A stretch of DNA of 64,000 nt from a virus (IMGVR_UViG_3300008122_000001:119706-183705), one strand, 5' to 3'. Counted from the first letter of the stretch, positions 5,341 to 26,800 are shown. The notes: a model not told the origin generated them from the letters alone. Made by a program: numbers and translations.

Positions 5341-5351
5341 GAGTATATATT

Positions 5352-6035: not shown

Positions 6036-6089
6036 TTAATCCTTTTAACTTGTAACAACAAAGTCTATATTTATTATTAAGGAATTATT

Positions 6090-6488
6090 ATGTCTAATTT
6101 AACTGTTACTTTTTTTGAATACAATGGCGCAATTGGTGCTGAAATTGATATTGATAAAGGTACATTTTTAAATGATCCTAAAGCCCCAGGTCAAATGGGA
6201 ACAGTTACTGATACTAAATATATTGGTATGCCTGAAGAAGTTAAACAAGCTATCCTAACACGTTATAAACGTGAAGGTGGTTCTTTCGCTTCTATGATGA
6301 TTTCTAAATCATCTAAAGGTGATAATATTGGTATTCTTGGTGGATATAAAGCTTGTTTAGCAACTTCTAAAACAGCTAATATTGAAATCAGTCGTGATTG
6401 TGATCTTTCAGTTTTAGATTCTTGTGTTAAAATTGAAAACAATCCTCCACAAGATTTTAAAGATTATATTGATTCTTTATCTAAATAA
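6090..6488 (+). CDS. hypothetical protein
   Basis: ORF track; RBS aaggaatta upstream. Confidence 0.5.
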   Translation: MSNLTVTFFEYNGAIGAEIDIDKGTFLNDPKAPGQMGTVTDTKYIGMPEEVKQAILTRYKREGGSFASMMISKSSKGDNIGILGGYKACLATSKTANIEISRDCDLSVLDSCVKIENNPPQDFKDYIDSLSK

Positions 6489-6498
6489 GGATATAGGT

Positions 6499-6732
6499 AT
6501 GAAACTATATGCAGTAATGTGTACAGAAAGTGAACAGCCTACTCATTTAGTAATTGCATTTAAAGAGTCAGAACTATTTTCAAAATTACATAGTATGTAT
6601 GAAATTAGTGAAAAATCTTTTAATGAGTTACGTGATACAAATTCAGCTCATGTTGAATATATAGATCCTTATGGTGGTACAGATTCTATTACAAAATATG
6701 TTCAATTATTTTTAGACACTACAGAATTTTAA
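6499..6732 (+). CDS. hypothetical protein
   Basis: ATG 6499 preceded by aaggatataggt RBS, just after the upstream stop (the track start at 6424 overlaps the previous gene). Confidence 0.45.
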   Translation: MKLYAVMCTESEQPTHLVIAFKESELFSKLHSMYEISEKSFNELRDTNSAHVEYIDPYGGTDSITKYVQLFLDTTEF

Positions 6733-6742
6733 AGGAAAATAT

Positions 6743-7381
6743 ATGTCTACACCTATTGTTCCATATAGCGATGCAACAGCTCTATTAGGTCAAGTTCATT
6801 CTACATTACAAAATCGTGATGCAGTACACGTTGCTTGTATTCAAGTAGAATTAGCAGAATCTTATCATATTGATAGTCCTGCTCAAATGCTTCGTATGAA
6901 TAATGAAGGTAAGTTTGTTCCTACAACAAATCGTGAACAAGCTTTAGGTATTTTAGATCCATTTATTACTAATTTTTATGATTTAAATGATGGTGATAAA
7001 GTTTGGTTAATTTTATTTCCAGGTATGATTCGTTCTTTATCTCATTATTGGGAACATGAAGCTTTTCCTCCTGCTCCTGTAGAACAATCTTTTACTGATT
7101 TTGTTTTAAAACAAAAAACAGATAAAGAAGCTTCAATTCCTCAAAATAAACTTTCAAGTTATCAATATTTAATTCGAATTGCTGAAAACTTAGAAATGAG
7201 TCTTGATCGTCTTCTTGCAGAAGCTCATGAAAAAGTATTAAATAATAATCATTATTATATTGGTAATTCGGAAGCAGAAGGTTATAGTGTTGGATCAGAT
7301 TTTTGGTTTCATTATGAAAATTATACTGAAACTCAAGTACCTGAGTCTCATAAAGAAAACTTTATTTCTTGTTCTTGTTAA
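6743..7381 (+). CDS. hypothetical protein
   Basis: ORF track; RBS aaaggaaaat upstream. Confidence 0.55.
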   Translation: MSTPIVPYSDATALLGQVHSTLQNRDAVHVACIQVELAESYHIDSPAQMLRMNNEGKFVPTTNREQALGILDPFITNFYDLNDGDKVWLILFPGMIRSLSHYWEHEAFPPAPVEQSFTDFVLKQKTDKEASIPQNKLSSYQYLIRIAENLEMSLDRLLAEAHEKVLNNNHYYIGNSEAEGYSVGSDFWFHYENYTETQVPESHKENFISCSC

Positions 7382-7451
7382 AAAGTAAATAAATTTATAA
7401 CTATTCTTTAATAGAGTAGTTATATGTGTATTTATTTAAAAAGGTATTAAT

Positions 7452-7889
7452 ATGCAATTTAATTTATTAATAGACAAACATCCTCTGTCTGTTACTATAC
7501 CTCAATCACAATTAAGTTTTAATGGGTTTAAAGATAAAGATTTAGTTGCTGTTTTATTTAATGGTAGTAATATTATAGCTGGATATTTAATGTTTTTATC
7601 TGAATTAAATATTAGTTATCCTGTTTTAATTAATTTAAAAGGTGAAGCAATAGAACTAATAAATATATATGGTATTAGTCATATTTCTACTGTCCCATTT
7701 GTTGAATTAAATAAAAATATTACTTCAGAAACATATCTTGAATATATTACCTTTAAATATTTAAATATAAATAATAATCCTTGTAGTGGTTATACTTTAG
7801 GTCAAATTTTAGATAAGATTAAAAAGGAATATGGTAATTTACAATTTAAATATAAAATTGTAAATAAACATATTTATTGTAATGTTTAA
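7452..7889 (+). CDS. hypothetical protein
   Basis: ORF track; 70-nt AT-rich leader upstream. Confidence 0.5.
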   Translation: MQFNLLIDKHPLSVTIPQSQLSFNGFKDKDLVAVLFNGSNIIAGYLMFLSELNISYPVLINLKGEAIELINIYGISHISTVPFVELNKNITSETYLEYITFKYLNINNNPCSGYTLGQILDKIKKEYGNLQFKYKIVNKHIYCNV

Positions 7890-7903
7890 TATTGGATTAA
7901 ATT

Positions 7904-8299
7904 ATGAAAATTAATGCTCTTGAATTATTAGGTAAACATAAAGATTGTATTTTAGCTCATTTAATACTAGAAGCAGGTAGTATAAGTGAGTATAAAAAAC
8001 AATTTGAAGAAGTTACCAAAACAATACATGAATCTAAAGATAAACTTTTAGATATTAAAATTGTTTATAATGGTATTGAATTTGATGGTCAAATTTTAGA
8101 AAACTTAATTCAAGAGCAATGGAATCATGTAGTTAAAAAGTTAGAAAATAAATATTCTGATCTTGATAAATTAGCGGAACAAAAAGCTGATGTATTATTT
8201 AATCAACGAATTAACGACTTAAAACAACCTACTATAGAAAAATTATATAAAATTCAATCTATGGTAGATAAAGTTTATACTGAATTGGATGTTCTTTAA
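7904..8299 (+). CDS. hypothetical protein
   Basis: ORF track. Confidence 0.5.
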   Translation: MKINALELLGKHKDCILAHLILEAGSISEYKKQFEEVTKTIHESKDKLLDIKIVYNGIEFDGQILENLIQEQWNHVVKKLENKYSDLDKLAEQKADVLFNQRINDLKQPTIEKLYKIQSMVDKVYTELDVL

Positions 8300-8301
8300 T
8301 C

Positions 8302-8970
8302 ATGTTAAAATTTAATACAGAACAGATATTATTAATAGGTAATATTAATAATTTTCGTATTACAGATATTTTGAAAACTTATACAGGAGATTCATTAAAT
8401 TCTCCTTTATTTAGTTTTAAAATAGAGTTACGTTTTAATTCTTTATTACCTTCTGCTAAATTATTATCTAATTTAGATAATTCTTGGTTTAAACCTAATA
8501 ATTACACTTTAAAAGATATAATTGTATCTTTTGATACTTTATTAGAATTATTAGAATATTTAAATCCTAATGAAGGTATTAAAATTGAATTATTAAATCA
8601 TCAAAGTGATATTAAATTGTTCAATTTATTATTAGCAATGACTGATGAACAACCTTTTAAAGTTTCATTTAATAGCTTATGTCTAAAGTATAAAAATGTT
8701 ATTTACATTATCTATGATACTAATGAACGTACTTATTTTAGACATATTATTTCAGAAGATTTGAAACATACTTTTAAAAAGAATTTTGATATTAAAAATC
8801 AATTAACTTTTCATATTGTAAAAGCAATTGAAAGTATTTATAAAGATCCGTCACTTGTTGTATTAGATAATGGTCACATTGTTTATAAAGGTGTTGAATA
8901 CTTAAATCATAAAAAAATTATTTATTCAACTAATTTTATTAAAGATTACTTTTTAAATATTAATTGGTAA
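8302..8970 (+). CDS. hypothetical protein
   Basis: ORF track; 2-nt spacing from upstream gene. Confidence 0.5.
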   Translation: MLKFNTEQILLIGNINNFRITDILKTYTGDSLNSPLFSFKIELRFNSLLPSAKLLSNLDNSWFKPNNYTLKDIIVSFDTLLELLEYLNPNEGIKIELLNHQSDIKLFNLLLAMTDEQPFKVSFNSLCLKYKNVIYIIYDTNERTYFRHIISEDLKHTFKKNFDIKNQLTFHIVKAIESIYKDPSLVVLDNGHIVYKGVEYLNHKKIIYSTNFIKDYFLNINW

Positions 8971-8974
8971 TGTT

Positions 8975-9184
8975 ATGACATCTATTCATGTTGTTATGGT
9001 TGTTTCTCCAAGAGGAACATTATTTGATAAGTATCAAATAATAAATGAATTTGATACTATGTTAGATGATATGAAATTTAAATTTCCTATACTAACAGAT
9101 GAGAATTTATTAGATATGGTTAAAACAGGTAAGTATATTTCTGAAAGAAATTTTACTTTTTTATATCATGAATTTAAGTGTTAA
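8975..9184 (+). CDS. hypothetical protein
   Basis: ORF track. Confidence 0.45.
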   Translation: MTSIHVVMVVSPRGTLFDKYQIINEFDTMLDDMKFKFPILTDENLLDMVKTGKYISERNFTFLYHEFKC

Positions 9185-9188
9185 TTTT

Positions 9189-9647
9189 ATGTATAATGAA
9201 CATTTATTAAATAATTGGCAAATTAATCATGATCCAAATATTTTAATTGAATTTATTAAAAAGTTTCGTGATAATATTTGGCCATATTATTCTCCTTCTG
9301 GACATTGGACTCCAGAACAAGAAGAAGGTATTTCTAAATTTTGTAATCCACCTTTAAATGGTATGTATCATACTACTTATTATGATGGTAAAATTTTACA
9401 TTGTTCTGTAGGTGAAGTTGAAATTTCTTTTCAAAAAGGATCAGCTTCTATGTGTTTTTATTTTCCTAATATTGATATATTAATTTATTCTGATTATCTC
9501 TACTATGGTTCTGAAACAATTTATAATGATAGTCATTCAGATATTCGATATGATTCTCCTCTTAAAGGTTTTGAAGAATTATTGAATATTCAAGAATGTG
9601 AGGAGAGAAGATTAGTAACTGTTTCTATAACCGTAAGAGGTAAATAA
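9189..9647 (+). CDS. hypothetical protein
   Basis: ATG 9189 lies just after the upstream stop; the track's alternative start at 9168 overlaps the previous gene by 17 nt. Confidence 0.5.
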   Translation: MYNEHLLNNWQINHDPNILIEFIKKFRDNIWPYYSPSGHWTPEQEEGISKFCNPPLNGMYHTTYYDGKILHCSVGEVEISFQKGSASMCFYFPNIDILIYSDYLYYGSETIYNDSHSDIRYDSPLKGFEELLNIQECEERRLVTVSITVRGK

Positions 9648-10037
9648 ATGATTTATGGTTTACCAACTTTTAATGTATTTTCAAATTATAATTTTTCATT
9701 AGATTCTAATTTAAATTTATTATTTGTTGATCATTTAATTACTACTGATAATGTTCTTTCTATCTTACAATTAGAAGAAGATCAATATTTTATTTTAGAA
9801 CTTAATCGAGGACTTTATTTTAAAGGGTTTCAATCACAAAGAATTAAATTTATAAAATTTGAAGATCATATTTTAATGGTAATTCTAGATTGCGATCAAG
9901 ATGGTAAAAGAATAGGTCGTATTTCTTCTTTTACAATTAATGCTATTTCTTTTGAAGATCGTATTTATAAAATTAGCCATAATAAACTAATTGTATTTAA
10001 TAAAATGTTAGAAATAGCATCAAGTGGATTATTTTAA
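9648..10037 (+). CDS. hypothetical protein
   Basis: ORF track; starts directly after upstream TAA. Confidence 0.5.
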   Translation: MIYGLPTFNVFSNYNFSLDSNLNLLFVDHLITTDNVLSILQLEEDQYFILELNRGLYFKGFQSQRIKFIKFEDHILMVILDCDQDGKRIGRISSFTINAISFEDRIYKISHNKLIVFNKMLEIASSGLF

Positions 10038-11041
10038 TGTTAACATCATCTCAAATTTTAGCTTTTACTTTGTATAATCAATTATTTTCAGATGATGAAA
10101 ATGTTGCAAAGAAACAAAGACGTTCTTTATTAAATAAATGGCATCCTGATTCTAATAAGGATCAGGATGCTGAAAAAGTATTTATTCATATTAATTATTT
10201 ATATGGATTAAATAATGTTAAAGTAGTTGAAAATGTTCTTGAAATTAATGGTAAAGAATATCATTATTATTTTTCAATTGTTAATGATATCTTTACTTTA
10301 TATTATTTAACATCATTTAAACTTTTAATTAAATTTAATTTCAAGCAAGAAGAACTTAAACTAAATTTTGTAAAAAATCGAAATAAATTAGATTTATTTT
10401 TAGATTCTAAAGATTTTAAAAGTCGTTATCAAGACATTTTAAATTTAAAGATTTTAAGTTCTTCTAATGGTGAATATTTATATATTGATTTATCACCTAA
10501 TTATTTACCATTATCTTTGATTCTTCAGTATATTAAAGAATTTAAAGATTGGAAAATGAGTGCTTGGATTATTTCACGTTATTACGATTCTGCTTTGTTG
10601 TATCAACATTCGGATTTAAAATATATTGGATGTGATTTTAATTTAGTGTTTGTCGATACTAAAAAACATTTAATTATTGATTTATCTGCTTTATTCTTTT
10701 CTGTTAAAGATACAATGTTATTATTAACTAATAATCAACATAAATTCTTTACTCATTCCGCTATATCATCTAAAAAATGTGATGATGAATCTATTAATTC
10801 TTTAATTAAGTTTTCATCTATTTTATTAGCAGGTGATACTACTCAAACTGGTAATTTTAATTTAATTGAAGATATTGAAGTTAATAAAGAATTAATTCAA
10901 CAACTTCTTTTAATTAATTCTTCTCGTTCTTTATTAGATAATTATAAAGAATGGCAAGAACAAACAATTACTAAAGTTTTTTCTCAACGTTCTTTTTATA
11001 AAAAAGAACTTACTTTTAATGATCTTAAACAATATATTTAA
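10037..11041 (+). CDS. J-domain (DnaJ-like, HPD motif) protein
   Basis: N-terminal AKKQRRSLLNKWHPDSNKDQDAEKVFIHINYLYG resembles the J-domain helix II-HPD-helix III region (KYHPDKN consensus). Confidence 0.5.
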   Translation: MLTSSQILAFTLYNQLFSDDENVAKKQRRSLLNKWHPDSNKDQDAEKVFIHINYLYGLNNVKVVENVLEINGKEYHYYFSIVNDIFTLYYLTSFKLLIKFNFKQEELKLNFVKNRNKLDLFLDSKDFKSRYQDILNLKILSSSNGEYLYIDLSPNYLPLSLILQYIKEFKDWKMSAWIISRYYDSALLYQHSDLKYIGCDFNLVFVDTKKHLIIDLSALFFSVKDTMLLLTNNQHKFFTHSAISSKKCDDESINSLIKFSSILLAGDTTQTGNFNLIEDIEVNKELIQQLLLINSSRSLLDNYKEWQEQTITKVFSQRSFYKKELTFNDLKQYI

Positions 11042-11052
11042 GGATATATACT

Positions 11053-11979
11053 ATGGGTGGTTCAAGTTTTTCTACAGCAGACTGGTCTCGTGCTTCTTCT
11101 ACAGTTCGTGATCAACCTTTACATAAGACAAATGTTTCATCTTCATTAAAAGATGAATTAAATCCTGCTCTTATGAAAAATAATTGTCGTGAATCTTGTG
11201 ATTCTGTACATAATCCTAATTCTACAGCTATTATTATTGGTCTAGATATGACTGGTAGTATGAGCAGTATTATTTCTCAAATTATGGGTAAAAGTTTAGG
11301 TACTTTATTTGAATATATTTATGATCGTAAACCTGTATCAGATCCACAAGTATTATTTTGTGCTGTTGGTGATGAAATGGCAGGCGATCCTGCTCCGTTT
11401 CAAGTAGGTCAATTTGAATCTGAATGTGGTCGTTTAATGACTACTCTTAAAGATTTCTGGGTTGATGGTTGTCGTGGTGGTAATAATGATGTTGAATCTT
11501 ATGATTTACCATATTTCTTTGCATCACATATGACTAAAATTGATTGTATGAAAAAACGTAATCAAAAAGGTTTTATCTTTACAATTGGTGATGAACCACC
11601 TCCATCTACATTAAGTCCAAAAACTGTTAAACGTGTATTTGGAATTGATATTCAAAAAGAAATTTCTTTTAAAGATTTAATTCAATTAACTTCACAATCA
11701 TACATTCCTTTTCATATTATTATGTCTGAAGGTTTCCATCCTAAATTACATGGTATTAACTCTGTATTACAGCCGTGGCAAAATCTTTTAGGTGAAAATG
11801 CAATTGTATGTGATGATTCAACTAAATTATCTGAAGTTATTACTAGTATTTTAGAAATTAAAGCTGGTAAAAATAAAACTGAAGTAATTAATAGTTGGGA
11901 TTCTACTACTACTCTTGTAGTACAAAAAGCTGTAGGCAACTTACCAGCTCAACAATCTGGTGGTCTTGTTTTTAATTAA
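11053..11979 (+). CDS. von Willebrand factor A (vWA) domain protein
   Basis: MIDAS motif IIIGLDMTGSMSS (DxSGS) followed by the beta-alpha pattern typical of a vWA fold. Confidence 0.6.
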   Translation: MGGSSFSTADWSRASSTVRDQPLHKTNVSSSLKDELNPALMKNNCRESCDSVHNPNSTAIIIGLDMTGSMSSIISQIMGKSLGTLFEYIYDRKPVSDPQVLFCAVGDEMAGDPAPFQVGQFESECGRLMTTLKDFWVDGCRGGNNDVESYDLPYFFASHMTKIDCMKKRNQKGFIFTIGDEPPPSTLSPKTVKRVFGIDIQKEISFKDLIQLTSQSYIPFHIIMSEGFHPKLHGINSVLQPWQNLLGENAIVCDDSTKLSEVITSILEIKAGKNKTEVINSWDSTTTLVVQKAVGNLPAQQSGGLVFN

Positions 11980-12000
11980 TTAATGTTTTAAGGTTCTACA

Positions 12001-13221
12001 ATGGAAAATGCAGTAGTTATTGGTTCTAATTATGGTGATGAATCTAAAGGTCGTACTACAGATTATTTAGTTAAACAAATGTTGAATCAGAAATTAAACC
12101 CTATTGTTGTACGTTTTAGTGGTTCTAATAATGCTTCACATACTGTATATCTAAATGAAACTACTTATCATGCTTTTAGTAGTATTGGTAGTGGAAGTTT
12201 CCGTAATGTTCCAACTTATCTTTCTGAGTTTTTTGCTGTAGAACCTCAAGCATTGATTAATGAATTAAATAGTTTTAAGTCTAAGTTTAATTATACTTCT
12301 ACTATCTTTATTGATCCAAATTGTTTATTGGTTACTCCTTATGATGTTGCTCTTAATCGTTTAAAAGAAACATTAAAGGGTAATCATAAACATGGTTCAA
12401 CTGGTTCTGGTTTAAATGAATGTAAACAACGTAGCAAAACGCATCCATTCTATATTAAGGATTTGTTAACTGGACAAAATACTGAATTATTTAATAATAT
12501 TTATGCTTATTTTATTAAGCAGTTACAATATTTAATTGATCAATATAAATTAGATATCGAAACATTAGATTCTGATTTAAAAGATTTACTTTATATTACA
12601 CTTAATATGAAGTTTATTGATGCATTCTATTCTCATTATTCTAGTTTACTAGATAACCCTCATATTACCTTAGAAACTCCTGATTTAAAAGAATACTCTT
12701 GTGTATTTGAAGGTTCTCAAGGTTTAGCATTAGAGGAAGATTATCATAATTTTCCTTATGTTACTCACTCAAAAACTGGTATTCGAAATGTTCTAGAAAT
12801 TTGTGTAAAACATGGTATTGAACTTACTGATGTTTATTACCTCTCTCGCACTTATCTCTCTCGTCACGGTTTCGATCCAAACTTTAATACTTGTCATCAC
12901 AAAAATGTGTTAGAAGATTTTAATATCTTTGATGTAACTAATGTATATAATCCTTGGCAAGGTTCTATGGTATTTAATTATCTAAATATTAATGAATTAG
13001 AATCTCGAATTAATACTGATTTTAAACATTGTTTAGAAGTCTTTCCTAATTGTTTAGAACATCGTGTATTCTCTTGTGTAGATCAAATTAAAGGTAAATA
13101 TAAAGTAGTTATTGATAATACACTACACGTATTTCCTTCATTCAATGATTTTTTAAATTTGTATATGGAACAGTTTAAAATTTCTTTTGTTACTTCTTTC
13201 ACTTCCCCTATTAATAGTTAG
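12001..13221 (+). CDS. adenylosuccinate synthetase family protein (PurA/PurZ-like)
   Basis: P-loop VVIGSNYGDESKGRTTDYL (PurA GDEGKGK), SNNASHTVY (PurA NAGHT catalytic His) and GSTGSGLNE (PurA GTTGRGIGP) all present in the right order. Confidence 0.75.
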   Translation: MENAVVIGSNYGDESKGRTTDYLVKQMLNQKLNPIVVRFSGSNNASHTVYLNETTYHAFSSIGSGSFRNVPTYLSEFFAVEPQALINELNSFKSKFNYTSTIFIDPNCLLVTPYDVALNRLKETLKGNHKHGSTGSGLNECKQRSKTHPFYIKDLLTGQNTELFNNIYAYFIKQLQYLIDQYKLDIETLDSDLKDLLYITLNMKFIDAFYSHYSSLLDNPHITLETPDLKEYSCVFEGSQGLALEEDYHNFPYVTHSKTGIRNVLEICVKHGIELTDVYYLSRTYLSRHGFDPNFNTCHHKNVLEDFNIFDVTNVYNPWQGSMVFNYLNINELESRINTDFKHCLEVFPNCLEHRVFSCVDQIKGKYKVVIDNTLHVFPSFNDFLNLYMEQFKISFVTSFTSPINS

Positions 13222-13230
13222 GAGCTTCTT

Positions 13231-13512
13231 ATGTCTGATTTAAAAATGAAAGTTTTTCTTGTAAATGAAATTGAATCTGAAGCTGGTTGGGGTTCTCGTG
13301 ACTCTGCTCAATATGTTTTTCCTAGTGAAGAGTTAGCTTTAGAATTTTGTAAAAAATATCATGCTGAAAATAACAATTTAAGTTATGTTCCAGATACTTA
13401 TTATCGTCAAGAATATAAAGGTACAGTAAAGATTACTGAATCTCAGTTCAATAAACATAAGTATAAAGGTGATTTAATTGTTATGCCTGAATGGAATTTT
13501 ACTGGAACTTAA
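13231..13512 (+). CDS. hypothetical protein
   Basis: ORF track; in frame with and 9 nt downstream of the TAG stop of the PurA-like gene. Confidence 0.5.
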   Translation: MSDLKMKVFLVNEIESEAGWGSRDSAQYVFPSEELALEFCKKYHAENNNLSYVPDTYYRQEYKGTVKITESQFNKHKYKGDLIVMPEWNFTGT

Positions 13513-13513: not shown

Positions 13514-13957
13514 ATGATTATTGAAACAATCAAAAAAGATATTTTTCAATCTGTATTAAATTCTGAATTTGATTTATTTGCACATGGTTGTAACTGTTTT
13601 CATTCTTTTGGAAAAGGTATTGCATTAACTGTAAAAGATACTTTTCCAAAAGCATATGTTGCAGATAAAGCTACAGCATATGGTTCTAAAGATAAATTAG
13701 GAACTTATTCTTTTGCTGAATATGATTGTGTAAAAGTTATCAATGCTTATACTCAATTTAATTATGGTTATGGAAAAAGAAATGCAGATTATAATGCTAT
13801 TAAAAAAGTATTTGAAACATTAAACTTAGAGTATCCTGGTTTAACTTTAGCTATTCCTAAAATTGGTGCTGGTTTAGCTAAAGGTGATTGGAATATTATT
13901 CAAGATATTATCAATGAATCAACTCCTGATTTAAAAGTATCTTTATTTTATTTATAG
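13514..13957 (+). CDS. macro domain protein (ADP-ribose binding / hydrolase)
   Basis: DLFAHGCNCFHSFGKGIALTV and IPKIGAGLAKGDW match the macro-domain core motifs; ATG 13514 directly follows the upstream stop. Confidence 0.7.
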   Translation: MIIETIKKDIFQSVLNSEFDLFAHGCNCFHSFGKGIALTVKDTFPKAYVADKATAYGSKDKLGTYSFAEYDCVKVINAYTQFNYGYGKRNADYNAIKKVFETLNLEYPGLTLAIPKIGAGLAKGDWNIIQDIINESTPDLKVSLFYL

Positions 13958-13966
13958 GTAACTATA

Positions 13967-14287
13967 ATGATATCTAATGAAGAATGGTGTTGGGATTCAG
14001 AAGAACCTCAACAACTTAGTTCTTATCCTTTAGCACATAAATCAAATGAAGTAGCACTACTTGTTCAACGAAATGGTGTTATTTTTATTCGTCTCCATTC
14101 TAAGTGTTTAAGATACGCTTATGAATGGGGGATTAATACAAGAGATGCTCGTACTACTTGGCAACTTGAATGTCAAAAATCTCGTTTAATTAATGAAGGG
14201 TTTAAAATTAATTGGGATAATTACCAATTAATTCTTCAAATGTTTAATCAACGTTTTAAACTGTATGCTCCCTATTTAGGTAAATAA
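13967..14287 (+). CDS. hypothetical protein
   Basis: ORF track. Confidence 0.5.
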   Translation: MISNEEWCWDSEEPQQLSSYPLAHKSNEVALLVQRNGVIFIRLHSKCLRYAYEWGINTRDARTTWQLECQKSRLINEGFKINWDNYQLILQMFNQRFKLYAPYLGK

Positions 14288-14288
14288 T

Positions 14289-14486
14289 ATGAATATTGTA
14301 TATCTTGTTTTATTTGTAATTGGTTCTAGTGGAATAACTTCACAATCTATTCCTCAAGCAAATATGGCTCAATGTCAAATTAATGCTAAACAATTTAATA
14401 CTGGAAATAATAGAAATATTGTTTCTAATAGTTATACTAGTGATGCAAAAACACAAGCAGCTTTGTGTATAGTAGGAATTAAATAA
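14289..14486 (+). CDS. small secreted/membrane protein
   Basis: ORF track; hydrophobic N-terminus MNIVYLVLFVIGSSG. Confidence 0.45.
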   Translation: MNIVYLVLFVIGSSGITSQSIPQANMAQCQINAKQFNTGNNRNIVSNSYTSDAKTQAALCIVGIK

Positions 14487-14488
14487 AT

Positions 14489-14686
14489 ATGGAACAATTA
14501 TTAACGCATTCTTGTCCTGTTATTAAATCTAGAACTAAAGTTGAAATCCTTCGTGTATTCAATTTTCCTGCTACTGATAAACAATTTGTAACTATTAAAG
14601 ATTTAGAAAATTTTACTCTAAATCATAAGGGACATAAAGAAGATATTATTAGTACTATTGAATTAACTCTTGATACTTTTGTGTAG
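14489..14686 (+). CDS. hypothetical protein
   Basis: ORF track. Confidence 0.45.
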   Translation: MEQLLTHSCPVIKSRTKVEILRVFNFPATDKQFVTIKDLENFTLNHKGHKEDIISTIELTLDTFV

Positions 14687-14694
14687 ATCATTAA

Positions 14695-15135
14695 ATGAAA
14701 CGTTATTCGATATTGTCTATGTATAAATGGACTGGAGAAGAATTTTCTATTTTTAATTCAGATGATTTTTCAAGTATTATGTCTAAATATAATTTTATAT
14801 TGAAACATATAAAATACATGAAAGTTTTATCTCCATCTAAATCTAATCATCGTATTAGTAATTTACAAGTATTCAAAAAAATATATAAAGAATTACATAC
14901 AAATTCTTCTTTATACCCTTGTGATTTATTAGATCCTAATATTATTGTTTTACGTGATAATAAAACTAATTTAATAATTAGTAATTTTAGGTTTCATAAA
15001 TTAATGGGAGGATTAATTCCTAATGAAATTACTCCAGAATATTTAACAGAACAGAAAGAAGTAAATCAAATTCTTTCTTCTATTTGGCAAGATTATACTA
15101 AATGTTATTCATTTAAATATTTTAGAATATATTAA
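14695..15135 (+). CDS. hypothetical protein
   Basis: ORF track. Confidence 0.5.
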   Translation: MKRYSILSMYKWTGEEFSIFNSDDFSSIMSKYNFILKHIKYMKVLSPSKSNHRISNLQVFKKIYKELHTNSSLYPCDLLDPNIIVLRDNKTNLIISNFRFHKLMGGLIPNEITPEYLTEQKEVNQILSSIWQDYTKCYSFKYFRIY

Positions 15136-15145
15136 AGGTAATATT

Positions 15146-15715
15146 ATGAAACGTTTTTTTAATGTTAAAGCTTTATGTAATTATTACGATGAAGTTAAAA
15201 AAGTTGAAGTTTTAAGTTATGATCGTAATAAACATTGTACTGTTCGTTTTGAAGATGGAACAACAGATGATGTAAAAAAATATAGTTTATATAATTTACC
15301 TAAAGGTTTTAAATTTAATTTATTACCTTATGATTATGAAGAAACTATTACTAGTAAAGAAATTGCTAAAGATCTTCGTAATCATAACCGTTATTATTTT
15401 AAATTATTTAATAAATTTAAAACAGGTATTACTGTTAAATTTTTTAAATCAGATGATTTTAAATATAATAATGTAGATTATGAAATTAAAGGCACTCGTA
15501 AAGAAATTATTAAACATTTTAATTCTTTACCTAAAGATAAAATTAATAATTTTTCTTTACATTTAAATTTTTATAAAAAAAATTCTTTAGTTTCAGGTTC
15601 TTGTTTCTCTTATAAAAACAAGAAAACCACTATTTATTGTTTCAGAGATAAAGAACAAAATAAATTTATTAAACAATTATTACGATCTTTGTTTAAAATT
15701 AAGGTTAAAGATTAA
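15146..15715 (+). CDS. hypothetical protein
   Basis: ORF track; RBS aaaggtaatatt upstream. Confidence 0.5.
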   Translation: MKRFFNVKALCNYYDEVKKVEVLSYDRNKHCTVRFEDGTTDDVKKYSLYNLPKGFKFNLLPYDYEETITSKEIAKDLRNHNRYYFKLFNKFKTGITVKFFKSDDFKYNNVDYEIKGTRKEIIKHFNSLPKDKINNFSLHLNFYKKNSLVSGSCFSYKNKKTTIYCFRDKEQNKFIKQLLRSLFKIKVKD

Positions 15716-15717
15716 AC

Positions 15718-15960
15718 ATGGAAATGTGTGATGGATGGTATAGTATGGGTACTTCAGATAATTCTAAATTTTTAGTTATACAACAAAATTTAGAAACAAA
15801 ACTCAATGAAAAACTATTTTATGTTTCTTCTACTGTTGAATTACGTAATGTTTTAGATATTAATAAAACTCAATATGATCAGTTATTGTCTAAACTATTC
15901 GTTGATAATAATGGTTATCGTTATTCAATTATGCAGATTCCTTATTGGATGCAAAAATGA
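15718..15960 (+). CDS. hypothetical protein
   Basis: ORF track. Confidence 0.45.
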   Translation: MEMCDGWYSMGTSDNSKFLVIQQNLETKLNEKLFYVSSTVELRNVLDINKTQYDQLLSKLFVDNNGYRYSIMQIPYWMQK

Positions 15961-16394
15961 ATTATAAAAGCATTGAAGAACTAAGTATTATATACTTAGA
16001 AGCTATTGGTTTTAAACATAATGATCATGTTTGTGTTTTATTTAAAAACGGTGATGTACAACATGGCAAATTAAATTTTCATGGTTCTTTTATTAAATTA
16101 AATCCTACTGAAAATATTGTTATTCCTATGTACAATGCAATAGCTCTTTATCATGTTAATTTTATTAAACCAACTTCTTCTCAATCTGAATTATATAATT
16201 TAAAAGGTACATATACAGTAACTTGTAAATTATTAAATATTCATTCTCAAGTAATTTCAGACGTTACTCCTAAACAAGTATTCAATGAAATAAGATGTTT
16301 AAAACCTTCTTATTGGTACAATATGGATATAGATATTGAAAAGAAGACTATTAAAGTTTTCACTTGTTCTCGTGAAGATAATCTAGATATTTAA
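15957..16394 (+). CDS. hypothetical protein
   Basis: ATG 15957 forms an ATGA overlap with the upstream stop; the track start at 15945 is an alternative. Confidence 0.5.
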   Translation: MNYKSIEELSIIYLEAIGFKHNDHVCVLFKNGDVQHGKLNFHGSFIKLNPTENIVIPMYNAIALYHVNFIKPTSSQSELYNLKGTYTVTCKLLNIHSQVISDVTPKQVFNEIRCLKPSYWYNMDIDIEKKTIKVFTCSREDNLDI

Positions 16395-16404
16395 GGTATT
16401 ATAT

Positions 16405-16896
16405 ATGTACATCAAAAATACAGTTATTAATGATAATTTTGTTGTTTTTTGGAACAGCATTTTTAGTAACTTTCTTCCATGTGATTTTGTATTTAAAGGT
16501 TTAAAATTTAAATACTCAGAACATGGACTCATGTGGTGTAAAGCTATTCACTTTGGTGACACCAAAATAGCAGAAGAAATTCTTGTAGCTCCAACTCCTA
16601 AAAAAGCTAAAGAATTAGGTCGTTTAGTTAAAAATTTTGATGAAAAAGAATGGAATGAAGTTCGTTTACAATACATGGTTGATGTACTTGTTTGTAAATT
16701 TGGACAAAATCCTTCATTAAAGAAAACTCTTTTAAGTACTGGTTCTCGTAAATTTGTAGAAGGATCTCCTTTCGATATCCATTGGGGTATTGGTATCCAT
16801 TGGCAAAATTCAGATTGTTTAGATGAATCTAAATGGAAAGGTCAAAATTTACTTGGTAAAGCTTTAGACCAAACAAAAGAAATTTTAAAAGGATAA
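16405..16896 (+). CDS. NADAR (YbiA-like, DUF1768) domain protein, predicted ADP-ribose N-glycosidase
   Basis: FVVFWNSIFSNFLPCDFVFKGLKFKYSEHGLMWCKAIHFGD matches the NADAR N-terminal signature (F-x-G-x-x-SNF; Y-x-S-x-EH); length ~160 aa fits. Confidence 0.65.
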   Translation: MYIKNTVINDNFVVFWNSIFSNFLPCDFVFKGLKFKYSEHGLMWCKAIHFGDTKIAEEILVAPTPKKAKELGRLVKNFDEKEWNEVRLQYMVDVLVCKFGQNPSLKKTLLSTGSRKFVEGSPFDIHWGIGIHWQNSDCLDESKWKGQNLLGKALDQTKEILKG

Positions 16897-16901
16897 GTCT
16901 A

Positions 16902-17468
16902 ATGAATCAAATAATGTACGAACGAGCTTGTGAAGTATTGCAAGAAAAGAAATTCAAACTAACTTTTGCTAAACTCTGTAAACTAATTAGTACAGAATTT
17001 GAAGAAATAGATGTAGAAAGTATAGGAATGGCAATTAATTGGGGTAGAAGTTTATATCGTATGAAACTTCCTCGTAATGCTAATGCTTATATTCCTTTTG
17101 AAACTCATGTATTACCTTTATATATAGATAATGAACATGGTTCTATCTATCGTATAAATAAAAATGGAAAAATTAAAGAAGTTCCTTTAGATTTAACTAA
17201 AAAATATGATATTCGTCATCTTTATGAAAATAAAGATACTTCTTTTGAATATTTTAATGTTAATACTTATACTATAAATGGTAAAGATATTCGTAATTGG
17301 TTGCCTATTCGTCGTAAACAAATTGGAACTTTTAAAACCCCAATTGCAAACCAACTTGTAGAACAAAATCAATATCAAATTGAATTTTGGTATAATGATT
17401 CTTGGTTAAGTCTTTTAGAACATTCAGCTATTTATAAAAATTATTCTTTTAAAGAATTATGTAATTAA
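16902..17468 (+). CDS. hypothetical protein
   Basis: ORF track. Confidence 0.5.
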   Translation: MNQIMYERACEVLQEKKFKLTFAKLCKLISTEFEEIDVESIGMAINWGRSLYRMKLPRNANAYIPFETHVLPLYIDNEHGSIYRINKNGKIKEVPLDLTKKYDIRHLYENKDTSFEYFNVNTYTINGKDIRNWLPIRRKQIGTFKTPIANQLVEQNQYQIEFWYNDSWLSLLEHSAIYKNYSFKELCN

Positions 17469-17477
17469 GGTACTGTT

Positions 17478-17903
17478 ATGGGTATGTTTGATACGTATGT
17501 TCCTTGTAAAAAGTTAATTGATATTTTATCTAAAGAAACTTTTCTTAAAGATTTTAATTGGCAAACTAAATCTTTAGAATGTGAACTTTTAGATTTAAAT
17601 ATTAATGAAAATTTACAAATTACTCAAGATGGTTGTCATTATCAATTTAATTCTGACCATTTCATTGATAATCCTTATGTAAATAAAGGAACACTACTTC
17701 TTGAATTTGTAAATAATGAACTAAATTCTATTTTACATATTAATAATTCAATTGATGAATATGGTTCTGTTAAAGTACCAGATGTATTAATTGAATTTAA
17801 AAATATTGATTCATATGAAGTTTCTAAAATTTATGATTTTGATCATAAATGTAAAGCTTTAATTAAACGTAATTATCTTTACAATTTATACTTGTATGGT
17901 TAA
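17478..17903 (+). CDS. hypothetical protein
   Basis: ORF track. Confidence 0.5.
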   Translation: MGMFDTYVPCKKLIDILSKETFLKDFNWQTKSLECELLDLNINENLQITQDGCHYQFNSDHFIDNPYVNKGTLLLEFVNNELNSILHINNSIDEYGSVKVPDVLIEFKNIDSYEVSKIYDFDHKCKALIKRNYLYNLYLYG

Positions 17904-17997
17904 AAAGGAAAAACTATGTGTTTTAATTATAAAAACATATTACTTTTAATGTAGGTTCACTTAATTCTGAGTGAACATAACATTAAAGGATAATATT

Positions 17998-18756
17998 ATG
18001 ATTCATCAAAACCAAATTGAAAAATTTGAACATTTACCAAAACGTGAAAAAGTTGGATTTGATCGTATAACTAAATCTTGGTATGAAGAAGATTTTCAAA
18101 AATCTGCAAATGAATACTATGGTTTAGGTAAAATTTATTTTGTTAATTGTGGAAATAAACATGTCGGCAAACCTGTTCAACAATTAATTCATAAGTTAAA
18201 ATCTAATTCTAATTATATATATAATAAATCTTTCAGAAAAGCTGTAAATGATTTGATTTTTACTGATCTTATATCAAAAACTCATGATCCTCGCATTCCT
18301 GGAAATTATAGAAATAGAAATGATTGGTTTTATGTAGACTCTAATAATTTAGTTCAGAAAAAGACAGATTTAGCGTACTTTGATACTCAAAGTCATTCTA
18401 ATTGTTATGTTCAAAGCACTGAATATGTTAAAGAATACTATCCTCAGTATGTTTCTATTGCTAAAACTTTATGGCGTTTACATATTCTTAAAATAACTGA
18501 CAAAGTTCTTGAATATTATCATTCAACGTTTAAGTATATTGTTCGCTATAATGGATTACATTATTATGTAAGTAATGAAAAATTAGATTTATACGATATT
18601 GAATATAAATATGTTCCTCGTTTAAAAGCATCACATCAAGTTGTTATCAACAATGCTTTGAATGAATTACAACTTCTTAAATTATCTGTTAATGATTTAA
18701 AATATCATGGATTAATAGATGTTAAAGAAAATATTCAACATAAAATAAATTTTTAA
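17998..18756 (+). CDS. hypothetical protein
   Basis: ATG 17998 preceded by aaaggataat RBS and a 7-bp hairpin (gttcact/agtgaac) in the 94-nt leader; the track start at 17971 would lie in the hairpin. Confidence 0.5.
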   Translation: MIHQNQIEKFEHLPKREKVGFDRITKSWYEEDFQKSANEYYGLGKIYFVNCGNKHVGKPVQQLIHKLKSNSNYIYNKSFRKAVNDLIFTDLISKTHDPRIPGNYRNRNDWFYVDSNNLVQKKTDLAYFDTQSHSNCYVQSTEYVKEYYPQYVSIAKTLWRLHILKITDKVLEYYHSTFKYIVRYNGLHYYVSNEKLDLYDIEYKYVPRLKASHQVVINNALNELQLLKLSVNDLKYHGLIDVKENIQHKINF

Positions 18757-18766
18757 AGGTAATTAA

Positions 18767-19642
18767 ATGTCTAAATTTCTTCATTCTAATCAATATAAAG
18801 CTATTCTATCTGATCTTCAAGATCCTTATTATTCTTTTCCTGAACATTTTAAAAAACCTCTTCCTTTGAATCCTTATGTTACTAAACATTTACATGGACA
18901 TTTAAAAAGAGGTAATTTAAAAACTCATTTAAAAGATAATGGAGTATCTTCTTGGGATTATGTAGATAAAAAATGTAAATATCATCGTAGAGATTCTGGA
19001 CAAGGTTGGGATATTGCTGAAAAAATCTTTAAGAAACATGTAGGTAAAACCTATAAAGAAATTAAAGAAATTATTTTAAAGAAGCGTTGTAGACATTTCT
19101 TTGAAATGAGTTTATTAGATCAGTTAGAAAAAGCTTATACAAATACTCATGATATTTATACTTTTAATTCTGATAACAAATTGGAATTAAAAGAAAAAAT
19201 TATTACAACTAAAAACGAATATAATCCTTACCTTTATCGTAAATTAGATTTATCTTCATTTTCTAATTTTAATAAGTCTCTAAAGAATAATCTACCAATG
19301 TTAGAACGTTTTGAAAAATTTATTCAAATGTTAGAATATAACGGTTATGAAGTAGAGATTTATGAACTGTTTTGTTCTTTTAAAGGTAAAGGTATTCGTG
19401 GATACATTAATGTAGATTCTAATACTCCCTCTTATTGTGGATTAGTCTTTGCAGAGTATTATGAATACTTTAATAAAGTTAGTCGTTGTTCTTTAGTTTT
19501 TGATATTCCTAAATCTAAATTAGGATGTGATTCTGCTTTAAAAGAATTAGTTTACTTAGGTACTAAATCTGCTAAAAAAGAATTATACAATGAAACTTAT
19601 CAACCAAAACATGTTAATCCAGTAAGCTGGTGGGATAGATAA
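18767..19642 (+). CDS. hypothetical protein
   Basis: ORF track. Confidence 0.5.
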   Translation: MSKFLHSNQYKAILSDLQDPYYSFPEHFKKPLPLNPYVTKHLHGHLKRGNLKTHLKDNGVSSWDYVDKKCKYHRRDSGQGWDIAEKIFKKHVGKTYKEIKEIILKKRCRHFFEMSLLDQLEKAYTNTHDIYTFNSDNKLELKEKIITTKNEYNPYLYRKLDLSSFSNFNKSLKNNLPMLERFEKFIQMLEYNGYEVEIYELFCSFKGKGIRGYINVDSNTPSYCGLVFAEYYEYFNKVSRCSLVFDIPKSKLGCDSALKELVYLGTKSAKKELYNETYQPKHVNPVSWWDR

Positions 19643-20868: not shown

Positions 20869-21348
20869 ATGGAAATTAATGAAAAAGACTTAAAAGTGTC
20901 TCAAACTTTTAATAAAGTTAGTGAACATTTAGAACAAATTAAAGTAAATACAGAAGAAAAATTAAAAGTATCTTTATCTGATACTCAAGAAGTTAATTTA
21001 TTATTACATAAATATTCTCAAGAATTAAAAACTAAATTTAAATATAATAAATATTTATGTAGTACAGATGATATTAAAAAGTTTTTATTAGAAAACTTTC
21101 CAAATGCTAAAATTGGATTTTTTAAATTATTAAAATTAGGTTTTATTGATTTTGGAAAGTTTTTTCTTATTCTTTATTTTATTTTAGCTCCTATATATTT
21201 ATTAATTATTCTTAATTTTACAGTATATTCTCTTCAAACTAGTATATTTGGTTCTATTTTATTATCTTTATTTACTAGTACTATGATTACTCTTCCATTA
21301 TATCCTTCCGAAATTAAAGCAACAAGAGGTCAATTTAAAATTGAGTAA
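20869..21348 (+). CDS. membrane protein, member of the 'E-x-DLKLS' two-TM paralogue family
   Basis: MEINEKDLKVSQTF N-terminus and two C-terminal TM helices, like 29278, 29719, 30177 and 42091. Confidence 0.5.
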   Translation: MEINEKDLKVSQTFNKVSEHLEQIKVNTEEKLKVSLSDTQEVNLLLHKYSQELKTKFKYNKYLCSTDDIKKFLLENFPNAKIGFFKLLKLGFIDFGKFFLILYFILAPIYLLIILNFTVYSLQTSIFGSILLSLFTSTMITLPLYPSEIKATRGQFKIE

Positions 21349-23837: not shown

Positions 23838-26800
23838 ATGAATACTCAAATTGGGTTAAAAGGTAATTTTAAATCTGTTCCTTATATTCCAGAAAATCTA
23901 TCACCTAAAGATATAGGTCAACTATTTCCGCCAGGTTTTGATGATATTATTGAATATTCTGTAGATGAATTTACTAAATCTATTAATATCACAATTTTAA
24001 CAGACACTAACAAAGAAAATACAATTATTACTCTTAGTGAAAATCTGTATAACCCGTCAAAGAACAAATGTTTCTTTCCTAAATTCCTCATTGAACAACA
24101 TCACAATTTTCCTAAAATTAATTACTTAACTGATCAACGTGATCGTTTTGTTTTTAATCAAAATGAATTGTTTTATATCTGTTTACAACACCGTTTAGTA
24201 GACTTTAAACGTTTTAAAGATGCTTATGGTAACTTAGTAAATAATGATATTAAATCTATTATGAATTTTATTGGTTATATTCCTAATACTGCATACAATG
24301 CTATTCAACGTGATAAGCATTCGTATATTTTATTAGATATTTATGACGATAAAACTAAAGCTTTAAAAGTTGTATCTAAAAAACAATGTTTAGGTAATAT
24401 CTTAAAACATCGTAAATATCACCCTACTAAAGAGAAGTTAAAAGCTTTATTGCCTACACTTCCTTTACATTTTTCTTCAGAATCTATGGGTGAAAAATCT
24501 AAGTATGTTTTACATGATTATAACTCTCCTTTATACCGTTCTGTAGGTTATAAAATGGAGTTAGATTCAAAAAATAATCCTTATGTTTTAAGTCTATTTC
24601 CACCTAAACAAAATATTCCTGCTCGTAATAAAACGCATGTAACTTCAGATGCATGTGCTTTAGCAAATTTTGTACCAACTTCGAAATTTATTCAAGATTA
24701 TCTTCCAAATTTGGAAGAACAACGTTTTGATCCTAAAGATCATTGTTATAAAAAATCTTTATGTGTTATTCATCCGATGTTGGAAAATGGTAAATTTTTA
24801 TATGGTGAAATTTATGCTTCTGAATCTTTTGTATCTACTGAAGTAATTGTTCGTGAAACAATTAAAGATCAATTTGAAGAGATTTTCATTGAAGAAAACA
24901 AAACATATTATTCAGATAGTAACAATCAAATTAAAGTTGGTTTAAATATTGAAAACCAACCATTATATTTGGAAAATTGTATTTCTGCTAAATTAACAAG
25001 TGTTCAAATCTTGGGTACTTTAGGTGTACAGAAATTAGTTTTTGATGTTGTACGTCATGCTGGTAATGCTCGTATTGATTCTAATACTGGTTTAAAAGGT
25101 GTAACAACTTGTCGTAATAATCTTGGTACTATCCATATTCCTGAACTTAATAAAGAATTAAAACCAGATCTAGTATTTGGTATGAACTCTTTTAAAGCTA
25201 AAGGAAATGGTATTATATTAGCTCGTGCTGCTCTTGCAGTAGAATTAGGTTTATATCGTCCATCAAATGTATTTGGTTATTTAAATACATGGGATACAGA
25301 TGAAATCAATCGTGCTTCTAATTCATTACCAGAATATTATTATATTGATGATTTAGGTAACAAACAAACAGTACAAATTGGTATTGTATATGCTCGTTTT
25401 ACTGAATTATGTTATATCTATAAGTCATATAAACCTAACAAGCCATTTAGTTTTGAATCAGGTCGTGTATTACAAAGCTTAACAGACAATCGTTTGTTTA
25501 CTAATATTTGGGAAAATTATGTTTCTGAAGATTATAAATCAATTGTAATTGAATTAGAAAAGATTCTTTTAGATAAAAAGAATATTTTTGAAGATGAAAT
25601 TCCAATTTATACAGTTGAAGGGATTCGAAATAAAAAGATTTTTAGTCATAAAGATCTGATTTTAAATATCCGAACATCAACTGAATCTTTATCTTGTTTA
25701 CTTGATGAAGATTGGAATAAAGGATTTATTATTAATTTTGTCCCTAATGGTGGAAAATGTGTACGTATTCCTTGTGCAAAAACTCTTAAATTATTCTGTA
25801 CTCAAACAGATGATAAAATGTACATGTACCCATCTTTATTAATTGAAATTTCTAAAATGATTAATTCCATTTTAAATAATTCAATTCAATTGTTGTTTCC
25901 TCGTACAGAAACAAATTATGCAAAAAATAATACACCAGTAATTCGTTATTATCGTGAAGTTAAAGGTTTATTGTTTTCTTCTGAAGAAGCTTCTGTAATG
26001 TTAATTCAAAAGCTTTCTCGTCCAGAAATTCCTGGATTTGCATTTAAACAAGTAACTGATTATATTTTACCAGATAACACTTGTGTACTTATGTGTAATA
26101 AGACATATAATAAAGCTATTGAAAATGCTTTAGGTGAAGATGCTGATTTACATGCTTTAACTTATAACTTCTATGGTTTACATGTTCGTGCTCCTTCTCT
26201 TTGGCGTAAACAGAACATTCCAGTTAAGATTTGGAATCAAGATGATTTTCGTATTTATCTTTGGTCTAAATTTGGTATTAAGTTAGAAAACTATATTAAT
26301 ACTAAATGGAATAATGACGTTGTAATCTTTAGTAATAATGTATGTCGTAACAGTCAATCGGATATTGATGGCGATCATAGTACTGTATTTACACCAGAAG
26401 GATTAGAAGTTCAAGAATGTCTTCGTACTTATAAAGACGATCATGTTGTAGAAGCTGAACATGAATGGATTCAAGATTACATTAAAGGCGAAATGGAGTC
26501 TAATGAAGATTTAATTAATGAAGATGGTACTTTAGTTAATCATGTTTATACTTTATATACAGTATATTTACATGATGTTAAAGTAAATCGTAAAGAAGTT
26601 AAAACTGGTTTCTCAACTTTCTTATATCGTGCTATTACAGCTAAAGCTAACATTGGTTTAAGTACTAATGATGGCTGGATCTTTAATATGATTCTTGATT
26701 TATACCAAAAGTATTATCAAGCTAATGATGGTAAATACCAAGTTACTGAAACATCTGAAGAAAAAGCAATGTATCGCTTATCTGAAGATCAACGTGATGA

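Follow-up and report, generated by a model that had tools for sequence, protein, structure and literature searches.

A 64,000-nucleotide stretch of viral DNA (IMGVR_UViG_3300008122_000001:119706-183705), given as one strand and called the window below, encodes members of three families of enzymes that remove ADP-ribose (ADPr): a macrodomain protein (macro), a NADAR protein and an ADP-ribosylglycohydrolase of the ARH/DraG/Tri1 family (ARH). On balance, we favour the view that they are independent, orphan erasers directed against ADP-ribosylating defences of the host. Features are numbered from the first letter of the window. The first-pass annotation had placed four enzymes of ADP-ribose metabolism here, the fourth being a Nudix hydrolase. 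All four are open reading frames (ORFs) of the + strand, with boundaries that agree with those called independently on identical public contigs. Pfam searches recover NADAR, ADP_ribosyl_GH and NUDIX above their gathering scores; the Macro model remains below its own, and the assignment of that protein is backed by other evidence. The catalytic residues are present in each: N27 and G118-A-G120 in the macro, E39 and E119 in the NADAR, the Asp/Thr metal site and TH motif in the ARH, and the Nudix box. Three eraser families with intact sites are thus found together as had been claimed, but the Nudix protein is not assignable to ADP-ribose.

The macro gene (13514-13957, + strand) encodes a stand-alone protein of 147 residues. 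Pfam Macro (PF01661) scores it at E = 0.031 and 14.6 bits against a gathering cutoff of 22, a sub-threshold value; most of its close homologues carry PF01661. The assignment stands despite this score because of the match to PHROG 335 ('phosphatase'; E = 2.9e-52), the homology to T4 Tk.4, the matches of a homologue profile to known structures and the comparison of a predicted model. T4 Tk.4 is 39% identical over its full length (147 of 155 residues; E = 2e-27), with the motifs AHGCNCFH, G-x-G, YTQF and P(K/R)IGAG common to both proteins. By tblastn, relatives are present in 2963 of 50,697 phage records, tk.4 of T4-like phages among them. A profile of 35 homologues searched against the PDB finds BT1257 (7e-16), SCO6735 (2e-13) and Mycobacterium tuberculosis DarG (5e-11), together with Poa1p, TARG1 and Thermus aquaticus DarG, the E-values ranging overall from 7e-16 to 8e-8. 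The AlphaFold2 model of the protein (pLDDT 90.8; pTM 0.87) was compared with the PDB by Foldseek: TARG1 comes first (1.4e-9; TM 0.76/0.80), followed by Poa1p, BT1257, DarG and SCO6735, with TM values of 0.71-0.80. DarG is the sole match in NCBIfam and in PADLOC. Judged by its homologues and its predicted fold, the protein is a genuine three-layer alpha/beta/alpha macrodomain of the ALC1/TARG1-like class.

Residues N27, G33, G35, G118 and G120 are invariant in the 35 homologues, G118-A-G120 forming the Gly-rich loop. An equally invariant Gln81 occupies the position of the catalytic Lys of other members of the class (DarG K80, TARG1 K84, PhiKZ AdfM K78). A Gln is also found at this position in SCO6735 (Q85) and in T4 Tk.4 (in the YTQF motif), and SCO6735 residues H24, N27, K34, Q85 and G126 correspond to H24, N27, K34, Q81 and G118 of the window protein. 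SCO6735 efficiently reverses the ADP-ribosylation of thymidine in DNA and can rescue cells from DarT, the Q85 mutant (Q85A) having no activity; it also removes Glu-linked ADP-ribose from protein (PMC9411070). In T4, tk.4 is the single gene needed to resist DarTG2; its loss sensitises the phage, and it was named adfM in a 2025 preprint, where the biochemistry of Tk.4 is inferred, not measured (bioRxiv 10.1101/2025.11.20.689424). The AdfM of PhiKZ is a second validated phage macrodomain against DarT2 (PMC13309987). Given the homology to Tk.4 (AdfM) and the SCO6735-like active site with its Gln, a predicted anti-DarT2 role of the window protein is well founded by homology.

The comparison with these proteins also sets limits. 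The window macro is like T4 Tk.4 in size, motifs, stand-alone state and PHROG 335 membership, but comes from a different phage lineage and host. It belongs to the same class as PhiKZ gp104 (AdfM) and DarG2 (PMC13309987; PDB 5m31, 5m3i), with Asn N27 here and N22/N23 there; it differs from them in having Gln81 in place of DarG K80 or PhiKZ K78 and in lacking the DarT-binding C-terminal domain, and there is no evidence of a phage nucleus for the window phage. The closest active sites are those of SCO6735 from Streptomyces coelicolor (5e3b; PMC9411070) and BT1257 (2fg1, 2afc): all share H24, N27, K34, the Gln and the Gly at 118/126, and all have Ala at the position of TARG1 D125. Identity to these two proteins is however only about 20-25%, K89 of SCO6735 is not strictly conserved, and SCO6735 is a cellular protein, not a phage one.

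The NADAR gene (16405-16896, + strand) encodes a stand-alone protein of 163 residues, recognized by Pfam NADAR (PF08719) at E = 5e-44 and 150.9 bits against a cutoff of 35.1. PDB matches include PnNADAR of Phytophthora (8bau; 1.5e-18) and Escherichia coli YbiA (2b3w; 1.3e-10). The predicted catalytic residues E39 (in YSEH) and E119 (in VEGS) align with E43 and E125 of PnNADAR, allowing for an inferred offset of 2 in the chain numbering; in PnNADAR these residues hold the distal ribose (PMC11543638). The residue in the last strand sets the NADAR subfamily: Glu in YbiA-type proteins, Asp in those linked to DarT1 and His in phage proteins of the T4 gp30.3 type (PMC11543638, PMC11125620). With Glu119 the window protein is of the Glu (YbiA) subtype, in keeping with its match to TIGR02464, and not of the T4 gp30.3 type. 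Nor is it of the DarG1 (BC4488) type: it has Glu and not Asp, is a 'naked' domain of 163 residues and has no DarT among its neighbours.

In vitro, guanine-ADPr is hydrolysed by every class of NADAR tested, YbiA and phage proteins included, and a myxobacterial YbiA neutralizes its own ADP-ribosyltransferase (ART) toxin, YarT (PMC11125620). Three unrelated phage NADARs (AdfN of T4, Bas32 and Bas60) counter DarTG1; just one phage NADAR was placed near the YbiA group by the authors of that study (PMC11825919). The window NADAR is like these AdfN proteins, T4 gp30.3 among them, in being stand-alone with conserved catalytic residues, and guanine-ADPr hydrolysis would be expected of it by analogy; it differs in having Glu119 where gp30.3 has His and DarG1 has Asp. 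With E. coli YbiA (TIGR02464) it shares the 'naked' fold without extensions and the Glu in the last strand, but it is phage-encoded, has no riboflavin genes nearby and is closer to PnNADAR than to YbiA. A simple 'anti-DarT1' label is weakened because the protein is of the Glu type and passes TIGR02464. Relatives turn up in 889 phage records, most of them from large myoviruses that infect Staphylococcus, Listeria, Bacillus, Enterococcus or enterobacteria, and Serratia phage BF carries both a NADAR and an ARH. A link to the validated AdfN of Bas60 was not established, the E. coli phage match that was checked (muut) belonging to the Stephanstirmvirinae and not to the Vequintavirinae. In two close relatives of the window, contigs L022 (12983-13918) and L023 (8613-9548), the NADAR gene is followed by a DUF723 gene on the opposite strand and by a 47-residue duplicate of the NADAR C-terminus, an arrangement that looks like a homing-endonuclease-type insertion.

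The ARH gene (61756-62601, + strand) encodes a protein of 281 residues with a complete binuclear-metal site and the TH motif. Pfam ADP_ribosyl_GH (PF03747) recognizes it at E = 1.2e-62 and 212.7 bits (cutoff 26.2), and its PDB matches are a Thermus thermophilus protein (2cwc; 7e-49), Tri1 (6dre; 8e-36), DraG (2woc; 2.5e-25) and also Listeria Lmo0067. Residues D19, E26, T53-D54-D55, T158-H159, D229 and D231-T232 are invariant in 26 homologues of 40-76% identity. The protein resembles the Arg-specific hydrolases Tri1 (Serratia) and DraG, the nearest relatives that have been characterized, in its fold family and in all metal-binding and TH residues, but has no adjacent writer of the Tre1 or DraT type, and its best structural relative is the uncharacterized 2cwc. 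It falls far below the NCBIfam equivalog cutoffs of both (Tri1, 176.7 versus 490; DraG, 124.1 versus 337), and an Arg specificity is accordingly putative. ARH is rare in phages, being found in 57 of 50,697 records, mostly from phages of 180-500 kb; ARG domains have been reported in about 5% of jumbo phages and, as the rarer element of the viral repertoire, were proposed to act on macromolecular adducts (Iyer et al. 2022, PMC9503650). The phage ARH is the least understood part of the eraser set. An ORF of 120 residues, rich in Cys (CxxC...CxxC), lies at 61401-61763 and overlaps the start of the ARH gene by 8 nt, which suggests translational coupling; it has no family match, and no homologue of it adjoins ARH in the relatives.

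The fourth gene (59355-59732, + strand) encodes a small Nudix hydrolase of 125 residues, recognized by Pfam NUDIX (PF00293) at E = 2.5e-14 and 53.9 bits (cutoff 21.1). Its intact Nudix box, GKVEDNETVEEALHREMLEETGY, read from the sequence, is a perfect fit to GX5EX7REUXEEXGU. A Nudix fold by itself implies no ADP-ribose substrate, and the best matches in NCBIfam and the PDB are of the MutT, RppH and NudI types, those in NCBIfam all far below cutoffs; NudE (2.7e-4) and YffH (2.4e-3) rank under these in NCBIfam and are also below cutoffs. The phage Nudix enzyme able to cleave ADP-ribose is NudE of T4. Orthology with T4 NudE was rejected, as the likeness is confined to the box (16 of 39 residues around it). 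Among phages, its nearest relatives are small proteins encoded by Acinetobacter T4-like phages and annotated 'nudE' (42-44% identity). Their name is no proof of orthology because T4 NudE matches in the box only and because the locus is different: the gene of Acj9 sits between pseT and cd, and T4 nudE adjoins e. The window Nudix is, from these comparisons, probably an unrelated pyrophosphohydrolase that at most degrades released ADP-ribose.

The window as a whole is most likely a slice of a previously undescribed phage genome of jumbo size and about 25% G+C. The G+C content is 22-29% along the whole 64 kb, and of the approximately 131 predicted genes very few match known phage families (PHROGs); there is only one non-overlapping ORF of at least 100 residues on the - strand. 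The INPHARED phage collection holds no record close to the window at the DNA level, and IMG/VR holds no contig with a close relative of its NADAR or ARH gene. Identical stretches are present in the NCBI assembly GCA_031546405.1 and in Logan run SRR7182493. Phage contigs whose ARH is 65-69% identical to that of the window, and which have a few other genes in common with it, measure 170 and 253 kb (SRR25400092_896 and SRR25833178_1273 are related contigs in this size range). The window probably shows about a quarter of a genome of some 250 kb.

The four stand-alone enzymes are scattered among arrays of closely spaced accessory genes. One such array runs unbroken, with 1-21 nt between genes, through the 2.4 kb that separate macro and NADAR. 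The Nudix and ARH genes, 2.0 kb from each other, belong to two arrays with some 0.5 kb between them (60303-60820), where the sole + strand ORF is one of 59 residues with a TTG start, absent from the public gene call. The two pairs are separated by 42.5 kb. Between macro and NADAR lie seven tightly packed small ORFs (13967-16394, + strand) with no assigned role; they have no Pfam, PHROG or PADLOC assignment except for phrog_15182, a function-unassigned family. L022 and L023 share many genes with the window at 50-97% identity, and there the order is macro, ORFs of 65, 146, 189 and 80 residues, NADAR. By tblastn, four of the seven window ORFs recur in these relatives in the same order at 80-97% amino acid identity, and a fifth (13967-14287; 59% identity) is found there upstream of the macro gene. 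The linkage of macro and NADAR in L022 and L023 is ordinary synteny among relatives. Distant IMG/VR relatives of the NADAR or ARH gene have no other window gene within 10 kb, and the Nudix gene is not near ARH in the ARH-bearing relatives L024 and L025 or in contig L021. The single counter-defence module put forward by the first-pass annotation is not borne out: a conserved module or operon of four genes was rejected, since the genes form two loose pairs 42.5 kb apart whose linkage is kept only in the general synteny of close relatives.

An enzyme that would write the modification was searched for in several ways. PHROGs was run on a concatenation of almost all + strand ORFs predicted with 45 residues or more, some small paralogues being left out and the enzyme genes scanned apart. 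PHROGs, precomputed Pfam annotation of the identical public contigs and PADLOC on the neighbours turned up neither an ART nor a sirtuin nor a gene of NAD salvage in the window, and ARTs and sirtuins also went undetected in the 10 kb beyond its right end. Direct searches gave the same result: the L021 genes, compared with the window by tblastn, revealed no ART, and phmmer --max of all six-frame ORFs of the window, with the PARP domain of L021 and the Alt protein of Aeromonas phage phiAS5 as queries, gave a best E-value of 0.15. These searches agree with the first-pass annotation, which could identify no phage ART in this window, and such an absence is what is expected for orphan erasers.

Possible writers are present in other genomes that carry ARH. 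Contig L021 (71 kb, 27% G+C), unrelated to the window and from another sample, encodes a protein of 1494 residues whose C-terminus passes the Pfam PARP catalytic model (29.6 versus 26.7 bits), with the H-Y-E motifs FHGT, GIYLAE and LFEVEV. Two tandem macro genes of the Tk.4 type, whose products share 34% and 55% identity with their window counterpart, and an ARH gene (43%) lie within 3 kb, 4 kb downstream of the PARP-domain gene, all of them within 11 kb (1613-12546), and an Rnl1 gene is found downstream. When the L021 PARP domain was used to look for homologues, a single fragment was retrieved. In L024 a SIR2-family gene (3703-4470) lies 1.9 kb from ARH, and in L025 RNA ligase and PNKP genes (16807-19147) lie 6-8 kb from ARH. 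Phage phiAS5 has an Alt-like ART, Tk.4 and ARH.

We propose that the three proteins act as erasers of the 'orphan antitoxin' type, which would strip ADP-ribose placed on phage molecules by ADP-ribosyltransferase defences of the host. The proposal builds on the families, their intact sites, the homology to T4 AdfM and the arrangement of the genes; from these we infer the substrates and the counter-defence role. The macro (AdfM/Tk.4-type) would free thymidines of single-stranded phage DNA from ADP-ribose, the modification of the DarT2 type, by a lysine-independent mechanism like that of SCO6735, in which Gln81 would position the substrate and a water molecule. The NADAR would do the same for guanine, in DNA or RNA (DarT1/YarT/ScARP-type), through the pair Glu39 and Glu119. 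The ARH would remove ADP-ribose from a protein side chain, with arginine the most likely target because of the affinity to Tri1 and DraG.

Several observations weigh against this proposal. The window macro does not have the catalytic Lys of DarG, TARG1 and PhiKZ AdfM, and the same macro family adjoins NadV in Acinetobacter phages, a context that suggests another role. The NADAR passes the TIGR02464 model of riboflavin-intermediate N-glycosidases (147.9 versus 73.7 bits; NCBI), and E. coli YbiA and T4 gp30.3, each expressed alone, gave no rescue from DarT1 (PMC11125620). The literature searched holds no phage ARH with a demonstrated function, and the genes that adjoin ARH elsewhere, encoding a PARP-like protein (L021), SIR2 (L024) or RNA ligase and PNKP (L025), point to other roles. 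More generally, Iyer et al. argued that phage Macro and NADAR proteins target mainly small ADPr derivatives (PMC9503650). The counter-defence role claimed in the first-pass annotation is plausible. For the macro it is backed by membership of the T4 Tk.4/AdfM family; for the NADAR, the guanine-ADPr hydrolysis seen in tested proteins is in its favour, but its YbiA type and the failure of YbiA to rescue from DarT1 are not.

The erasers might instead partner a phage-encoded writer outside the 64-kb window, perhaps a sirtuin or a virion protein of the Alt-like or PARP-like kind, and limit, reverse or time its modification of host or phage proteins, or shield the phage from self-modification. We regard this, the main rival, as unlikely, although it retains some weight because three-quarters of the genome are out of view and because of the L021 and phiAS5 contexts. 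In L021 the two macro paralogues and ARH cluster within 11 kb of the PARP-domain protein, in phiAS5 the Alt-like ART, Tk.4 and ARH occur together, SIR2 is close to ARH in L024, and NADARs are expressed with ARTs in several T4-like phages (PMC9503650). The L021 cluster is however a single observation, neither an ART nor a sirtuin came to light in the window and the adjoining 10 kb, and the phenotype of T4 Tk.4 is specific to the host DarTG2 (bioRxiv 10.1101/2025.11.20.689424). T4 moreover manages without an ARH although it has Alt, ModA and ModB; ARTs thus do not require one. Decidedly doubtful, in our estimate, is a role on small molecules, in which the enzymes would process ADPr-derived immune signals or toxins (Thoeris/TIR products, O-acetyl-ADPr, ADPr-1''-phosphate from RNA repair) or recycle ADP-ribose after attack by a host NADase, the Nudix protein cleaving the ADPr pyrophosphate. 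This was the main proposal of Iyer et al. (2022) for phage Macro, NADAR and Nudix proteins (PMC9503650), and it would agree with the annotation of the window macro family as phosphatase or A1pp and its resemblance to Poa1p, with the neighbourhood of macro and NadV in Acinetobacter phages, with ARH relatives near RNA ligase and PNKP (L025) or Rnl1 (L021), and with the RNA-maintenance flavour of the window (a Ro60-like protein, TilS, a GatB/YqeY-like protein and tRNAs). Against it, PHROGs gave no match in the window to KptA/Tpt1, RNA ligase, NadV, Nmnat or any other gene of NAD reconstitution, the validated homologue nearest to the macro counters a DNA-modifying system, and the window Nudix has no similarity specific to ADP-ribose pyrophosphatases.

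It is also conceivable, but improbable, that the co-occurrence is incidental and that four unrelated accessory genes of a gene-rich jumbo phage happen to lie in one window, the NADAR being a riboflavin-intermediate N-glycosidase and the Nudix protein a MutT/RppH-like pyrophosphohydrolase of nucleotides or RNA ends. The TIGR02464 score of the NADAR and the MutT, RppH and NudI matches of the Nudix protein are compatible with this, as are the 42.5 kb between the pairs and the failure of relatives to keep Nudix near ARH; since about 48% of medium and jumbo phages have a NADAR (PMC9503650), several such genes per phage are to be expected. There are, on the other hand, three mechanistically distinct eraser families with intact active sites, one of which, ARH, is rare (57 of 50,697 records); macro and ARH are independently linked in L021; the families co-occur above chance (PMC9503650); and no riboflavin pathway gene is present in the window.

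Independent erasers directed against host defences, the reading we favour, would fit a known phage strategy. Macro, NADAR, SLOG and Nudix proteins are typically stand-alone and co-occur in DNA viruses above chance (Iyer, Burroughs, Anantharaman and Aravind 2022, PMC9503650). The window follows the same pattern of the viral NAD+-ADPr network, stand-alone Macro, NADAR and Nudix proteins in large myovirus-like phages, and adds the rarer ARH. The co-occurrence of these families in large phages and the anti-DarT roles of phage NADAR and macro proteins are already documented, the latter by experiments in T4, BASEL phages and PhiKZ. What the window represents is a new, distant phage lineage carrying AdfM- and AdfN-type proteins plus an ARH, and not a new system.

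Other features of the window were recorded beside the eraser genes. Upstream of the macro gene, at 12001-13221, is a divergent protein of the PurA/PurZ superfamily (406 residues; PHROG 1211 at 7.6e-46), separated from it by a single ORF of 93 residues (13231-13512). An identity as PurZ (Z-base) is not supported (43.7 bits against a cutoff of 300); the PurA cutoff is also missed (110 versus 402), and the C-terminal 110 or so residues do not align with PurA. A scan of 11-18 kb for promoters and terminators found fewer promoter-like sites than in shuffled sequences and no terminators.

The region of 56697-56766 and 57297-57374 contains a tRNA with anticodon CTA, which would read UAG (labelled tRNA-Pyl by ARAGORN; Rfam tRNA, 56.8 bits), near a tRNA-Arg(TCG). 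The TAG stop is used in just 10 of the 131 predicted genes, and the first of these tRNAs may be a suppressor tRNA. A stretch of 2.2 kb (52263-54434) has no ORF of at least 45 residues in any frame. Stop-codon recoding was rejected as its cause, as no ORF appears with any one stop read through; no Rfam family matches within it, and it includes a perfect 21-nt inverted repeat (54127-54147 and 54246-54266). A protein with the N-terminal domain of the tRNA lysidine synthetase TilS is encoded at 42564-43187 (111.7 bits against a curated cutoff of 93.6); a phage TilS plausibly fits a very AT-rich genome that relies on AUA codons. A homologue of GatB/YqeY-like 'tRNA amidotransferase' is found at 33312-33746. 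Of two proteins recorded together at 48099-49433 and 11053-11979, one is a Ro60/TROVE-like RNA-binding protein matching phrog_850, with a C-terminal half that, read by eye, appears to be of the von Willebrand factor A (vWA) type; the second matches phrog_2971 and is vWA-like by eye only.

Two paralogous families are spread over the same regions (38094-46016, and also 20869-21348, 29278-30629 and 42091-42558), one of 11 members with 81-106 residues and the other of five members with 139-159 residues and hydrophobic C-termini. The largest ORF of the window (23838-27257) encodes 1139 residues and has no match in PHROGs, NCBIfam or PDB sequences; the string 'SDIDGDH', seen by eye, recalls the metal-binding motif of the RNA polymerase beta-prime subunit.

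The pattern described here adds to a picture already known and overturns nothing in it. Should the inferred activities prove right, the phage would have erasers for thymine-, guanine- and protein-linked ADP-ribose, which would mean that its host, or the community of the host, uses several ADP-ribosylating defences, and that the AdfM and AdfN classes of counter-defence extend to a distant, uncultured phage group. For enzymology, the three proteins are natural variants of interest, namely a macro of the Gln type, a phage NADAR of the Glu type and an ARH. Two leads deserve priority, the ARH and the macro/ARH/PARP-like cluster of L021; the ARH is the most valuable because no function of a phage ARH was found in the literature and because in L021 it adjoins macro genes and a PARP-like protein. 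Two more speculative ideas, which we consider rather unlikely, arise here. Very AT-rich jumbo phages may run a reversible ADP-ribosylation circuit of their own, written by a sirtuin or by the PARP-like terminal domain of a giant protein that the virion probably delivers, and erased by Tk.4-type macros and ARH; or the phage ARH may be the first counter-defence enzyme of the ARH family, acting against arginine ADP-ribosylation of phage proteins by the host.

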